This document shows, one piece after another, positions 1,233-58,364 of a DNA stretch of 64,000 nt. The stretch's first letter is position 1, and each line of letters starts with the position of its first letter. The position numbers were made by a program, and so were the translations under genes. Origin of the DNA: a virus (Duplodnaviria; Heunggongvirae; Uroviricota; Caudoviricetes); the IMG/VR virus record IMGVR_UViG_3300031419_000581; one strand, 5' to 3'. A model generated the notes under the pieces. The model ran no database searches. It saw only the letters and a list, made by a program, of their open reading frames with translations, and had not been told where the DNA came from.

Positions 1233-2279
1233 TTAAAGCCTGTTTACAGTGTTTTTGTTTGGTAATTGAGGCATATCTTTTTGTAAATCATAATGTATTT
1301 TTACTTTCTCATAATGTGCTGAAAGTGACTTGTTTCGACGACAGGAACTCAGATAATCTTCGTCAAAAAAGCGCATATCAAAAAAAGGATTATCGACACA
1401 AAGAAAGCGTTGCATGTCCTGATTATCATTAAGCATTTTTTGGCAAAATGTAGAACAAAAACATTCAAGATTATCCTGAATTTTATAATCATCCATATTG
1501 GAAAGAGAAGTAAAAAAATGTGTATAAATCTGTTTGATTTCATCTACTGTGAATACATCAAACATAGCTTCATGGTTGTTTTCTTTAAATTTTGAATTGA
1601 AATTTATGAGCATGAAGCATTCATGGATTGAAATATTCATTGTTTCTTTAAAAAAAGCATTTCTTAAATCCGCAGGCTGTTTCAATAATGCATTCATGTC
1701 ATCATTCATACTGAACAAGGAAGATAAAATATATTTATCGTTAATTTCTTCTTTGAAATAATCTTTAAAAAAGAAAAAATTATCAGACAGGTCTTTTGAA
1801 TAAGCGTGTTTTTTATTGAATTGACATGTCATTTCCATAAGCATATTTCGGATAAATGCGTTTTCTATAATTTTAATATCCTCAGACTGACTTCCAATCG
1901 TATAAAACAGTTGAGTGAATGAAAGGGGCTGATGAAAAGCACAGAGACTTAAGTTTATTGCTGAAAGAGAAAGTTGTCCATTAGAAAAGCCTGCTGCCAG
2001 AAAATCCATATTACCTTGTATAATAGCGACCTGAAATAAATCAATTTCACGGAAATTTGGTTCATGATCAAAAATAATGGTATCAGGTGTAATGCCTAAT
2101 AAATAAATAAGAAGGTAAAAAGTTTCATTATTCAACTTTAACCCCTGAATAAGAGGATCCATTTCATTATATTTATTAATATGTGAATAATGCTTATGTA
2201 GTTCATCACCATGTTGTTGAACATAACATTTTAGTTTTTCACTATCATTATTAATTATAATTTGAGTTAATTCATTCAT
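1233..2279 (-). CDS. hypothetical protein, R-[LIM]-COOH tail family (ends ...PNKNTVNRL)
   Basis: 348-aa ORF, N/K/F-rich, no signal peptide. Has the ankyrin-like stretch EIDLFQVAIIQGNMDFLAAG. C-terminal YEKVKIHYDL...NKNTVNRL-stop. Confidence 0.75.
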   Translation of the reverse strand: MNELTQIIINNDSEKLKCYVQQHGDELHKHYSHINKYNEMDPLIQGLKLNNETFYLLIYLLGITPDTIIFDHEPNFREIDLFQVAIIQGNMDFLAAGFSNGQLSLSAINLSLCAFHQPLSFTQLFYTIGSQSEDIKIIENAFIRNMLMEMTCQFNKKHAYSKDLSDNFFFFKDYFKEEINDKYILSSLFSMNDDMNALLKQPADLRNAFFKETMNISIHECFMLINFNSKFKENNHEAMFDVFTVDEIKQIYTHFFTSLSNMDDYKIQDNLECFCSTFCQKMLNDNQDMQRFLCVDNPFFDMRFFDEDYLSSCRRNKSLSAHYEKVKIHYDLQKDMPQLPNKNTVNRL

Positions 2280-2347
2280 TTAAAAGATTTCCATTTAAAA
2301 GTCATAATCAATTATAAAATATTAATGCGTTTTGAGCCAGAAATATT

Positions 2348-2376
2348 TTGACAAATTAAGTGATTAAAGGTATACA
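2348..2376 (+). promoter_or_regulatory. sigma70-type promoter for 2409..3089
   Basis: TTGACA (2348-2353), 17-nt spacer, TATACA (2371-2376), about 30 nt upstream of the SD and ATG. Confidence 0.6.
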
Positions 2377-2408
2377 TTGCATGATTTTATCTCAATAAGG
2401 AATTTATT

Positions 2409-3089
2409 ATGAAAAAAACCATGTTTGCAGTAAGTGCTATTGCATTAAGCCTTATGTCAGCTTCCGTTTTTGCAGGACCTGCTGAGAAGTCAGAAGCTGC
2501 GCAGGAAAAATTTGTAAGTTATAGTTTTTACGGTGTGGCTGTTCCAGCAGATAATGCAAAGAATATTAAATACACCGATTTACAGAAAATTAAAGACCAG
2601 AAAGCTATGGCGGCTTATCTGAAAGATATTACCAAAAGTGAAAACGCAAAGCTGATTACTTCTGGTGGAGGCATGGATCTTTCGGGAAAAGATTTGGCTC
2701 TTAGTGTAAACAAAGAAATTCCGTATACCAAAAGTGTAACAATGAAAACTGATGCTGCAGATAAAACTTTAACGCAAACTGTGACTATGAAGCAGGATGT
2801 GTTTAATGAAGGCGTTAATCTATTAATGAATTCAAAAGAAGATAATGGTTTTATTCGCACAAAAATGAATCTTAATACAAATACACTGTTATTGATAACA
2901 AAAGGTGATGTAAAAGAGGGAACGCCGGATTCACTGGATACGCATTCAGTTAAAATAGATACATCATTTATCGTAAAACCTAATCAGGTAGTTAAGTTTG
3001 ATAGCCCTGTTTACGAGCGTGAAGGTAAAGAATATAAAGATATTTATTTCATTCAACAGAGCCTGGGAACAACTGCGGTTAAAGGTTAA
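2409..3089 (+). CDS. secreted protein of unknown function, tandem paralog A
   Basis: SD AAGGA. Signal peptide MKKTMFAVSAIALSLMSASVFA/GP. Colinear similarity to 3221..3862 (IPYTKSV vs IPYKEKV; VFNEGVNL vs VFKEGVKI; GFIRTKMN vs GLIKTKID; VVKFDSPV vs VIKFNSFV; KDIYFIQQS vs QNIYFIQEK). Confidence 0.8.
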   Translation: MKKTMFAVSAIALSLMSASVFAGPAEKSEAAQEKFVSYSFYGVAVPADNAKNIKYTDLQKIKDQKAMAAYLKDITKSENAKLITSGGGMDLSGKDLALSVNKEIPYTKSVTMKTDAADKTLTQTVTMKQDVFNEGVNLLMNSKEDNGFIRTKMNLNTNTLLLITKGDVKEGTPDSLDTHSVKIDTSFIVKPNQVVKFDSPVYEREGKEYKDIYFIQQSLGTTAVKG

Positions 3090-57123: not shown

Positions 57124-57217
57124 TATCTTAGCCCCTTTCAATCTGATTTAGAACTGTATCATAAATTATAAATTATTGCATTAAAATTTTTTTACTTCTT
57201 TCGCTTATAATCAAAAA

Positions 57218-57226
57218 TGTTATAAT
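57218..57226 (+). promoter_or_regulatory. extended -10 promoter element for 57249..58364
   Basis: TGtTATAAT. The TATAAT box overlaps the ATG at 57225 used by the ORF track, so the start at 57249 (TAAGGA SD 7 nt upstream) is more likely. Confidence 0.5.
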
Positions 57227-57248
57227 GGTTAAAACTAAGGAAAAAAAG

Positions 57249-58364
57249 ATGAATGAATCAAAAATTAATGAGATAATAAGAACAGGTAATATTAAAGAGA
57301 TGGAAAATTGTTTTTTGCGTAAAGAAGTTGACGTAAATGCAATTTTCAATAATGGATATAGCTTGCTTTCAAAAGTATTATATTCAGAAAATACAGAAAT
57401 GCTTAATATTCTGATAAAGTATAATGTAGATGTTAATCAGCCTTATAGTGTTGCACTCAAAAAGAACGAATCTACCGTCAGGACAACATATTATCCAGTA
57501 ATGATTCCATTAATGAAAGACAATGTAGAACATATGGATATTTTATTAAAAAACGGTCTTAATGACGTTTATAATCCAGAAAATTATGCTAATGTTTTAG
57601 ATATTTTTGATCAGGCAATAGTAAAAAAATCACATAAAGTACTCAGTTTGCTGCTTGAACGTAAAGTCCGCATTAACGATCCTTATATGTATATAGTAAA
57701 CCGTGAATATAAAAATGTAGAAAGAGAGCCTATCGTAAGAGAAATAAAAACAGCAAAAATAGCATTTCAGGCTATTGAGCAGGGATATGCAGAAGATTTA
57801 AAAGCATTTATTCTATTAAAATTATTGGACGATTTTTGTACAAAGCCACAATATAAATCTTATGTTAAAATATTTGAAATACTAAATAATCAAATGAAAA
57901 ATTCAGAATTCTGGAAAGAACAACAAGTTAAATTATTTGCAACACCTGTTTACACGAATTCCGAACGTGAAGACATGAAGATTAAACAGTTCATATTTTC
58001 GCAATTAGATTTAACGGGTTCTGCAACTGTGGATATCTATAAAAAATTAGCTGATAGTAAAAATCTTACTGCATTTAAAGTCTTAGAAAAAAACAAGTTT
58101 CTTAATCAAGTCCATATGAAAAATGGCTTAGGAATAGAAATTTTTGATTCTATAAATAATACACAGAGTGAATTTAATAAAGAAAAAAGTATCGGTATTA
58201 TAGAAATATTACTAAGAAATGGTTTACCTATTGAAAATGAACAAGTGATAGTATATTCAAAAAAATATCTGCCTGAATTATATGCTACCATAGAGAAGGA
58301 AAGTCTTAATCAACTTTTTTCAAATATTGAAGCGAATAAACCAAAGACGATTAAGCGTATCTGA
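57249..58364 (+). CDS. ankyrin-repeat protein, R-[LIM]-COOH tail family (ends ...KPKTIKRI)
   Basis: ANK repeats INEIIRTGNIKEMENCFLRKEVDVNA, NGYSLLSKVLYSENTEMLNILIKYNVDVNQP and YYPVMIPLMKDNVEHMDILLKNGLN. C-terminal IEKESLNQLFSNIEANKPKTIKRI-stop. Confidence 0.8.
   Translation: MNESKINEIIRTGNIKEMENCFLRKEVDVNAIFNNGYSLLSKVLYSENTEMLNILIKYNVDVNQPYSVALKKNESTVRTTYYPVMIPLMKDNVEHMDILLKNGLNDVYNPENYANVLDIFDQAIVKKSHKVLSLLLERKVRINDPYMYIVNREYKNVEREPIVREIKTAKIAFQAIEQGYAEDLKAFILLKLLDDFCTKPQYKSYVKIFEILNNQMKNSEFWKEQQVKLFATPVYTNSEREDMKIKQFIFSQLDLTGSATVDIYKKLADSKNLTAFKVLEKNKFLNQVHMKNGLGIEIFDSINNTQSEFNKEKSIGIIEILLRNGLPIENEQVIVYSKKYLPELYATIEKESLNQLFSNIEANKPKTIKRI

Follow-up and report, generated by a model that had tools for sequence, protein, structure and literature searches.

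Why would about a third of the genes in one genomic region encode proteins with unrelated bodies and the same kind of C-terminal dipeptide? This question is raised by a 64-kb stretch of DNA (IMG/VR record IMGVR_UViG_3300031419_000581; the whole stretch is referred to here as the window), in which 21 genes encode proteins that end with Arg followed by Leu, Ile, or Met. We refer to this ending, together with the residues upstream that accompany it, as the tag and to the proteins that have it as carriers. Bacterial C-terminal secretion signals are fuzzy, and effector prediction is consequently statistical. A tag of the kind described here would allow the whole candidate repertoire of a lineage to be listed from the last two residues, and its receptor could be sought by co-occurrence with the tag. 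We found that the tag is real, enriched, modular, and under strong purifying selection. The comparisons below indicate a strongly selected feature for which we found no description, and we infer its function from sequence.

The R-[L/I/M] ending is far more frequent in the window than expected by chance

We used a greedy, non-overlapping set of open reading frames (ORFs) from the window and counted as tagged those in which Arg and then Leu, Ile, or Met precede the stop codon (R-[LIM]). This ending was present in 21 of the 60 ORFs of at least 100 amino acids (aa) and in 21 of the 67 ORFs of at least 60 aa. Based on the composition of the window (Arg, 3.4%; Leu, Ile, and Met together, 20.5%), the expected frequency is 0.69% (0.0069) per protein (binomial p ~3e-30). 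When the final 30 or 60 residues of every protein were shuffled, tagged proteins numbered 0.59 and 0.52 on average, respectively, with a maximum of 6 in 5000 trials. In control analyses, 0.6% of 1546 ORFs from unrelated beta/gammaproteobacterial loci had an R-[LIM] end. Thus, the enrichment over composition claimed in an earlier reading of the window (the original prediction) is far beyond chance, and all 21 genes that it listed have translations without internal stops and the endings as first noted.

Tagged genes fill 33% of the window and have a lower GC content than untagged genes (27.9% versus 34.5%; p=3e-8). Eight further carriers are encoded past the window ends, four in each 10-kb flank, as read in the relatives listed below. 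Among the housekeeping proteins of the window with a Pfam or NCBIfam assignment, none is tagged, as had also been noted originally. This set comprises RNR, a HerA-like ATPase, an Fe-S protein, ClpP, ClpB, FtsH, a Suv3-type helicase, a cellulase, a C5 methylase, an SPFH protein, a CpxP-like protein, a histidine kinase, a response regulator, Tdk, an Na/Pi transporter, and Bax1-I.

Lys-[L/I/M] ends are limited to two untagged families in the window, encoded by 54030-54806 (+; ..MFNRKL) and 3221-3862 (+; ..FIQEKL). The NRKL end of the former is kept in relatives, yet this protein is slow-evolving (81% identity) like the products of untagged genes.

The ending is kept in divergent relatives

As relatives, we used syntenic contigs from public run assemblies, which are listed here with the identity of their ClpB to that of the window.
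Relative SRR14739082: ClpB 98% identical; loci L082, L084, and L086
Relatives SRR30451309 and SRR10083279: ClpB 95% identical; loci L083 and L081
Relative SRR31860670: ClpB 85% identical; loci L085 and L169
Relative SRR25400098: ClpB 74% identical; locus L171

In the ClpB-85% relative, R-[LIM] was kept in 18 of 18 tagged orthologues and gained in none of 25 untagged ones. The mean identity to this relative was 45.7% for tagged proteins versus 75.2% for untagged proteins (Mann-Whitney p=5e-7). Of 10 pairs scored per position, all 10 had an identical Arg, and the linker positions −5 to −13 were identical in at most 3. In 18 orthologue pairs, the Arg codon had undergone a synonymous change in 11 and a replacement in none. 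The last codon differed in 12 of these 18 pairs and the residue was altered in 7, always within Leu, Ile, and Met. A change from Arg to Lys was never seen, although AGA to AAA is a single transition and Lys is 2.8 times more common than Arg. In the ClpB-74% relative (GC content, 28%), the tag is encoded by 6 of the 13 complete genes (RRI, KRL, RRL, PRL, NRL, and TRL), and these include orthologues just 23-38% identical to window proteins in which the upstream element described below is retained. The tag, which is kept across relatives with ClpB identities of 98-74%, is therefore ancient within a clade roughly as deep as a family, and purifying selection on it is strong.

The tag is a bipartite peptide motif

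To describe the tag by position, we combined the tagged tails of the window with those at three divergence levels, which gave 56 non-identical sequences.
Position −1: Ile in 29, Leu in 25, and Met in 2 of the 56 tails
Position −2: Arg in 56/56
Position −3: Asn in 24, Lys in 12, and Ser in 6, then Arg, Thr, Pro, Gln, Ala, Val, Asp, and Glu; hydrophobic in 1/56
Position −4: hydrophobic (43%) or Lys
Positions −5 to −8: rich in Lys, Ser, and Asn and poor in hydrophobic residues
Positions −11 to −15: polar
Positions −16 to −21: Leu-rich
Positions −22 to −24: Lys, Glu, or Arg
Positions −25 to −29: Ile or Leu

Counting the motif E-[KR]-x-x-[LIM] wherever its Glu fell between −15 and −32, we found it in 17 of 29 tagged proteins versus 1 of 39 untagged proteins (expected, 0.045 per protein), and degenerate forms occur in most other tagged proteins. 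The upstream E-K-x-x-L element of the original prediction is, thus, real, and typically lies ~20-28 residues from the C-terminus. The last 12 residues of the carriers have a mean net charge of +2.34, with 5% Asp and Glu, and 31% Asn, Ser, Thr, and Gln compared with 23% in untagged tails. In 15 of the 21 carriers, there is exactly one Arg in the last 20 residues and the basic residues are otherwise Lys. All carriers have zero to two acidic residues at −10 to −17; the tag's own acidic position, at approximately −24, is one Glu with a Lys or Arg beside it. At the level of these profiles, the tag is bipartite: a polar linker that is rich in Lys and poor in acidic residues separates E-[K/R]-x-x-[L/I/M] from the terminal x-R-[L/I/M]-COOH.

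An AlphaFold2 (AF2) model of the protein encoded by 50382-51512, which is based on a four-sequence alignment and has a mean predicted local distance difference test score (pLDDT) of 69 (medium confidence), is all-alpha. In this model, residues 339-371, i.e., the entire tag, form one helix (pLDDT 58-79). The model is suggestive only, and either an ordered or a disordered tail would be compatible with it.

The tag is written in many ways at the DNA level. The Arg at −2 is encoded by five codons (AGA, AGG, CGC, CGA, and CGT) and the last residue by six, and all three stop codons are used. The nucleotide identity over the last 90 nucleotides, anchored at the C-terminus, is 0.37 for tagged and 0.30 for untagged genes. 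The five Arg codons and the near-random nucleotide identity of the tails argue that the tag is a peptide motif and not duplicated DNA. Accordingly, a recent duplication of one 3′ segment, which had been raised originally as the explanation that would undo the peptide interpretation, fails.

We also noticed a protein with the upstream element and a different end. The 130-aa product of 27612-28004 (−) contains EFEKKSL at approximately −23 and ends with ..EFPDNFKF, not with R-[L/I]; this end is kept in the three relatives covering the locus (ClpB 98%, 95%, and 85%). The gene is directly downstream of the tagged gene 28009-28452 and upstream of 27084-27548, and the three probably form one operon. 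Its product may have a variant tag or be a partner protein.

The carriers have unrelated, effector-like bodies

The 21 carriers of the window are listed below, with lengths and C-terminal residues from the ORF translations.
1233..2279 (−): tagged, 348 aa, ..NKNTVNRL; L084 orthologue, ..NKNTINRL
13050..14420 (−): tagged, 456 aa, ..AQKNISRL
14529..15062 (+): tagged, 177 aa, ..PSKKNRL; the only window carrier with a hydrophobic N-terminus; L085 orthologue 46% identical, ..IKSKNRL
16323..17660 (+): tagged, 445 aa, ..SSSLARL; L085 orthologue 30% identical, ..LPVLNRL
24257..25969 (+): tagged, 570 aa, ..KIVRSRI; orthologues RSRI (90% identity), RNRL (88%), and KERL (43%); no PDB or Pfam relative
25969..27075 (+): tagged, 368 aa, tail ..IEKQILKNQIPPDNISKMKVNRL; L085 orthologue 28% identical, ..SIKVNRI
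28009..28452 (−): tagged, 147 aa, ..HSLTKRI
28579..29541 (+): tagged, 320 aa, ..RQSLNRI; orthologues NIKRI, NINRI, and KVNRI; L171 orthologue 24% identical, KKTRL
32316..33680 (+): tagged, 454 aa, ..KQKVSRL; paralogue of 38669-40114; orthologues VNRL and VNRI
33677..34201 (+): tagged, 174 aa, tail ..EREKRILSEKTINGLPKIHNKSRI; orthologues KNRI and RQRM
34210..34692 (+): tagged, 160 aa, LPD29-type body, tail ..EHEKKILEKSLKKTSVKINKQNSTRL
34704..35177 (+): tagged, 157 aa, LPD29-type body, ..SPAKPRI
38669..40114 (+): tagged, 481 aa, ..KLSKNRM; the only Met ending in the window
41063..42214 (+): tagged, 383 aa, ..YSKSVRI; L169 orthologue 37% identical, ..SIRNRI; L171 orthologue KTRRI
45589..46125 (−): tagged, 178 aa, ..NFQQRRL; L169 orthologue ..NNQQNRL
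46210..47031 (+): tagged, 273 aa, weak ankyrin match, tail ..LEKESLNKDINKKISTSKINRI
48513..49586 (+): tagged, 357 aa, ..NVKTTNRL; orthologue SVKSRL
50382..51512 (+): tagged, 376 aa from the first ATG (372 aa in public data), tail ..LLEKERLESTIATSKNKLANRI; ankyrin repeats above the Pfam threshold; the best structural fold matches of the AF2 model are ankyrin proteins, with weak scores
51516..52739 (+): tagged, 407 aa, weak ankyrin match, tail ..TEKKSLNNILDTKNNEFKTKIKLNRI
55918..57123 (−): tagged, 401 aa, ..PGVISKRI; L169 orthologue 30% identical, ..PNGINRL
57249..58364 (+): tagged, 371 aa, weak ankyrin match, tail ..IEKESLNQLFSNIEANKPKTIKRI

In an all-against-all BLASTP comparison of the carriers, we found only two paralogous pairs (32316/38669 and 34210/34704). 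Using phmmer on the bodies without the last 35 residues, we identified 19 separate families among the 21 carriers. Carrier bodies span 147-629 aa. The bodies are, therefore, as heterogeneous as originally described, and the "expanded repertoire" proposed at the same time was not borne out, because there is no visible duplication and the carriers mostly represent unrelated single-copy families conserved in synteny. The ankyrin-like repeats attributed to "many" carriers were likewise too generous a description: the Pfam ankyrin models matched one carrier above threshold (50382-51512) and four more weakly. The L171 orthologue of the 34210/34704 family matched LPD29 above the Pfam threshold. For carriers other than the ankyrin-like and LPD29 proteins, no relatives were found in Pfam, NCBIfam, or PDB; exact-sequence look-ups of the window proteins gave no match, and carrier homologues in large protein collections were confined to this lineage. 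A segment resembling a signal peptide or transmembrane segment is missing from 27 of 29 tagged proteins and present in 15 of 39 untagged proteins, and the proteins in the flanks with obvious signal peptides are untagged. Based on these features, the carriers look like soluble, Sec-independent, fast-evolving, effector-like proteins.

LPD29 homologues are found on plasmids (52/79 predicted conjugative), where they do not have the R-[L/I] end. On the Nitrosospira plasmid pNRS527-2 (L172), the LPD29 gene adjoins genes for ArdC-like, SSB, ParAB, and VirB2/B3 proteins; the LPD29 protein of this plasmid lacks both the R-[L/I] end and anything corresponding to the tail. The occurrence of the domain on plasmids without the tail indicates that the tag was joined to a domain that exists elsewhere without it. 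In the window, the two tagged LPD29 genes are followed by a gene for a 169-aa protein of unknown function and then by the C5 cytosine methylase gene, and this block (34210-36774, +) looks like a domesticated piece of a conjugative element.

Another carrier gene is next to regulatory genes. Only 2 nt separate tagged 45589-46125 (−) from the histidine kinase gene 44078-45586, which is followed by the gene for the OmpR-type regulator (43410-44066), and the gene for the CpxP-like protein (42257-42808, −) is nearby. This arrangement is kept in L169 (ClpB 85%), and the tagged gene may be co-transcribed with this envelope-stress-type two-component system. A 7-mer enrichment analysis for a regulatory box shared upstream of tagged genes returned only the ordinary TATAAT −10 hexamer. 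Consensus TATAAT hexamers, often as G-A/T-TATAAT, are more common upstream of tagged genes, with TTATAAT present for 9 of 16 tagged versus 3 of 32 untagged genes (uncorrected for multiple testing), for example at 24200-24256, 50340-50381, and 41020-41062 in the window.

The tag may be a signal for Sec-independent export

A fixed tag common to ~30 unrelated soluble proteins suggests one common recognition step. Because only the last two residues by the free carboxylate are invariant and Lys is excluded, this step would involve a receptor pocket for the C-terminus, and because the carriers are effector-like and lack signal peptides, export would be the most economical step for them to have in common. 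We put the probability that the tag is a Sec-independent export or translocation signal common to the carriers at roughly 50%. The portable tag, ~25-30 residues long, would combine a helical E-[K/R]-x-x-[L/I/M] element with a linker and, at the free C-terminus, the invariant Arg-[Leu/Ile/Met]. One receptor would recognize three features of this end, namely the Arg side chain, the aliphatic final residue, and the carboxylate, and would pass the carriers on to one delivery machine, perhaps type IV-like. With an end of this kind that excludes Lys and implies a specific pocket, substrate recognition would become a direct structural and genetic question, in a lineage that devotes about a third of its local coding capacity to tagged proteins.

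For the machine, our best guess, unproven, is a type IV secretion system, since the signals of known type IV substrates are likewise C-terminal, basic, and hydrophilic. In Agrobacterium, an Arg-rich peptide at the C-terminus serves as the VirB/D4 signal (PMC3937733, citing Vergunst 2005). Signals for Dot/Icm also lie at the C-terminus, where short polar residues are abundant, with a Glu-rich block in a subset that is bound by DotM (PMC9302130). Similar to these signals, the tag is located at the extreme C-terminus of unrelated, soluble, Sec-independent effector-like proteins and has a polar stretch preceded by an acidic or helical element. It is hydrophilic and net positive near the end, as are VirB/D4 signals, and it is rich in short polar residues, as are the last 20-35 residues of Dot/Icm substrates. 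Moreover, there are ankyrin-type carriers, and one carrier family has relatives on conjugative plasmids.

Several observations weigh against this interpretation. Neither the window nor the ~84 kb read across the relatives contains genes for a secretion system, a coupling protein, or a plausible receptor; the original prediction had already stated that the window encodes no secretion apparatus, and this is also the case for 10 kb on either side, as read in relatives. In particular, genes for dot/icm (DotL/M/N and IcmS/W) and virB/virD4 systems are absent from the ~84 kb of the lineage that was read, and the type IV system is, therefore, assumed and not observed. The tag also differs from the known type IV signals. 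In contrast to the several spaced Arg residues of VirB/D4 signals, there is a single Arg and no Arg-rich stretch, and in place of the Glu-rich block of Dot/Icm signals at approximately −10 to −17, there is a single Glu at approximately −24. Finally, Arg at −2 and Leu, Ile, or Met at −1 are invariant in 56/56 tails, whereas known type IV signals have no invariant residue. Degeneracy is the rule for known C-terminal signals, whether of type IV, type I, or other systems, and none is known to end in an invariant dipeptide. Degeneracy of C-terminal secretion signals has also been described elsewhere (PMC9302130). The tripeptide overlaps the consensus of the eukaryotic type 1 peroxisomal targeting signal (PTS1), hence a role on the host side is conceivable.

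A candidate for the coupling protein, the HerA-like ATPase encoded by 7029-8363, was rejected. It has sub-threshold P-loop matches to VirB4 and TrwB, which are far below the family cut-offs, and is closest to HerA helicases.

Other bacterial C-terminal signals were also compared with the tag. Some type I substrates have extreme C-terminal motifs in which the last few residues and the free carboxylate matter. In contrast to RTX/HlyA-type substrates, the carriers have no GG.G.D repeats and contain 2.6% Gly; their Lys-rich tails run against the usual composition of type I signals, and the window has no genes for an ABC exporter, a membrane fusion protein, or TolC. Different from proteins with exosortase/sortase-type tags (PEP-CTERM, GlyGly-CTERM, and LPXTG), in which such a helix precedes a basic cluster, carriers have no C-terminal hydrophobic helix (maximum 15-residue Kyte-Doolittle score over the last 40 residues ≤1.26, mostly <0.7), and 27/29 lack signal-like segments. 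The type IX C-terminal domain is an ~80-residue folded domain of Sec-dependent proteins for which Pfam/TIGRFAM models exist, while the tag comprises ~25-30 residues on proteins without a signal peptide. No Pfam match was obtained at any carrier C-terminus.

Alternative explanations for the tag

A possible but distinctly less probable explanation is a previously undescribed delivery route, in which a receptor clamps the free Arg-aliphatic C-terminus in the way that PEX5 or a PDZ domain holds its ligand. Dozens to hundreds of unrelated effectors would then be fed to a new, or newly used, apparatus. We found no described Arg-Leu/Ile signal in the literature. The original statement that no described signal has this consensus misses PTS1, which overlaps the tag, with SRL and ARL being canonical. 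If such a route exists, the tag would provide the first example of a bacterial export signal that is defined by an invariant dipeptide at its end, and the effectors could be read off the genome.

We consider it unlikely that the tag loads cargo into a non-classical device such as a contractile injection system, outer-membrane vesicles, or a protein compartment, with the tail docking to the shell or tube. The evidence for a common recognition step applies here as it does to export, no classical apparatus is in view, and a helix followed by a linker and a terminal peptide resembles the cargo peptides of compartments and encapsulins. However, genes for a sheath, tube, baseplate, or shell are missing from the 84 kb read, and a third of the local genes exceeds the cargo known for any such system. 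Moreover, the known loading signals of contractile injection systems are located at the N-terminus, and encapsulins take few cargo proteins.

Mimicry of PTS1 directed at a host is also rather doubtful. The carriers would be delivered by means of another signal, and the tail would be bound by host PEX5 for targeting to peroxisomes or glycosomes or for titration of the receptor. The tag shares with PTS1 a free x-basic-aliphatic tripeptide after a polar or basic stretch and the use of Leu, Ile, or Met at the end, and the endings SRL and ARL are canonical PTS1 tripeptides. As many as 15 of the 21 endings versus 0 of 39 untagged ones fit the loose PROSITE-style pattern [STAGCN]-[RKH]-[LIVMAFY], and a described signal with an overlapping consensus, thus, exists; loose pattern scans would flag most tails as "microbody targeting signals," which calls for caution in annotation. 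PTS1 consists of the C-terminal tripeptide and ~9 accessible upstream residues and needs a small residue at −3 (PMC545800). Non-peroxisomal and even bacterial proteins with PTS1-like ends bind PEX5 (PMC545800). The polar, Lys-rich linker of the tag may agree with this description, and for the flexible upstream stretch of PTS1, we note that the AF2 model of one carrier has a helix of pLDDT 58-79 in this region. However, the strict pattern [SAC][KRH][LM] fits only 3 of the 21 endings. Position −3 is Asn or Lys in 36/56 tails and Ser or Ala in 7/56, with Gln, Glu, Asp, Arg, Pro, and Val also occurring, so that even acidic residues are tolerated. While Lys, Arg, and His are interchangeable at −2 in PTS1, the tag has only Arg and never Lys, despite the higher abundance of Lys. 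Furthermore, Ile is as frequent as Leu at −1, the conserved element at approximately −24 has no PTS1 counterpart, and the carriers are bacterial. One host destination for ~30 unrelated proteins would also be improbable.

We regard it as very unlikely that the tail acts inside the bacterium as a degradation or adaptor-binding signal, with a cytoplasmic AAA+ protease or adaptor reading the basic-hydrophobic end and keeping levels low. The MuA end ..RRKKAI (ClpX C-motif 2) is basic and then aliphatic and is recognized via its last residues and the free carboxylate, which the tag resembles. The genes for ClpP, ClpB, and FtsH lie within the window, but these are universal housekeeping proteins, and their presence is, therefore, uninformative. 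ClpX motifs mark few regulatory substrates, whereas the tag is on a third of the genes; constitutive degrons on so many genes with consensus −10 promoter boxes would be wasteful. In addition, known degrons tolerate Lys in place of Arg, and degradation leaves unexplained why the carriers are orphan, ankyrin-like, signal-peptide-free, and fast-evolving.

It is highly improbable that the tag reflects common descent only, i.e., that the carriers are one ancient, diverged paralogous family in which a C-terminal helix was kept for structural reasons. The single long helix formed by the whole tail in the AF2 model, the ankyrin-like N-terminal parts of several carriers, and the two paralogous pairs would fit this idea. 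By contrast, bodies of 147-629 aa have no detectable similarity across 19 families, the LPD29 body is found elsewhere without the tail, and conservation is focused on the last two residues by the carboxylate and not on the helix. Lastly, an origin at the nucleotide level, in which a terminator, a stop-codon context, or a repeated or recently duplicated 3′ segment encodes Arg-Leu/Ile by coincidence, has nothing beyond the shared ending itself in its favor and is already refuted by the variety of Arg, last-residue, and stop codons, the low nucleotide identity of the tails, and the synonymous exchange of the Arg codon in 11/18 orthologue pairs.

The window derives from an AT-rich lineage near the Betaproteobacteria

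The closest named relatives of the ClpB of the window are from Betaproteobacteria (65-68% identity; Burkholderiales, Methylophilaceae, Hydrogenophilus, and Noviherbaspirillum), while members of the lineage itself have ClpB proteins with 98, 85, 74, and 70% identity to it. Apart from the runs of the relatives listed above, SRR16327238, SRR22102338, and SRR30800425 contain this lineage. In a rough neighbor-joining tree, the lineage is on a long branch beside the Betaproteobacteria. In ClpB scans of genome and metagenome contig collections, there were only relatives with 60-66% identity among the matches listed. The ClpB clusters at 70% (P0069 and P0070) have 11 ENA and 26 Logan member sequences on short contigs from many samples, and a further, apparently common sister lineage exists at this distance. 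Based on the rough tree, the source appears to be an uncultured, AT-rich lineage that is deep-branching near the base of the Betaproteobacteria. The GC content of 28-32%, the ankyrin proteins, and the orphan genes suggest that its lifestyle is likely host-associated.

"Ca. Ichthyocystis" is an intracellular betaproteobacterium that is reported to have type II, type III, and type IV secretion systems and to devote a third of its genome to families of effectors (PMC4943182). We considered it as a source and did not confirm it: its GC content is 35-38%, its effectors are in large paralogous families, and no tag is mentioned.

Scans of the window for tRNAs and Rfam families were empty. Three further observations concern untagged genes. 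The Suv3-type helicase, of a type uncommon in bacteria, is encoded by 19608-21890 (−), has 760 aa with Suv3 DEXQ-box and SUV3_C domains as in the mitochondrial RNA degradosome, and is kept in L085. The genes 2409-3089 and 3221-3862 (+) are tandem paralogues of unknown function with 31% identity, and their counterpart region in L084 is 8757-9871; in this close relative, the orthologue of the first has a signal peptide and the second copy was called at 144 aa compared with 213 aa in the window. Finally, in 7029-8547 (+), a 79-aa ORF (8308-8547) comes after the gene for the HerA-like P-loop ATPase (444 aa) and overlaps it; the C-terminus of this ORF repeats that of the ATPase (53% identity over 34 aa), and L084 has a corresponding 65-aa gene.

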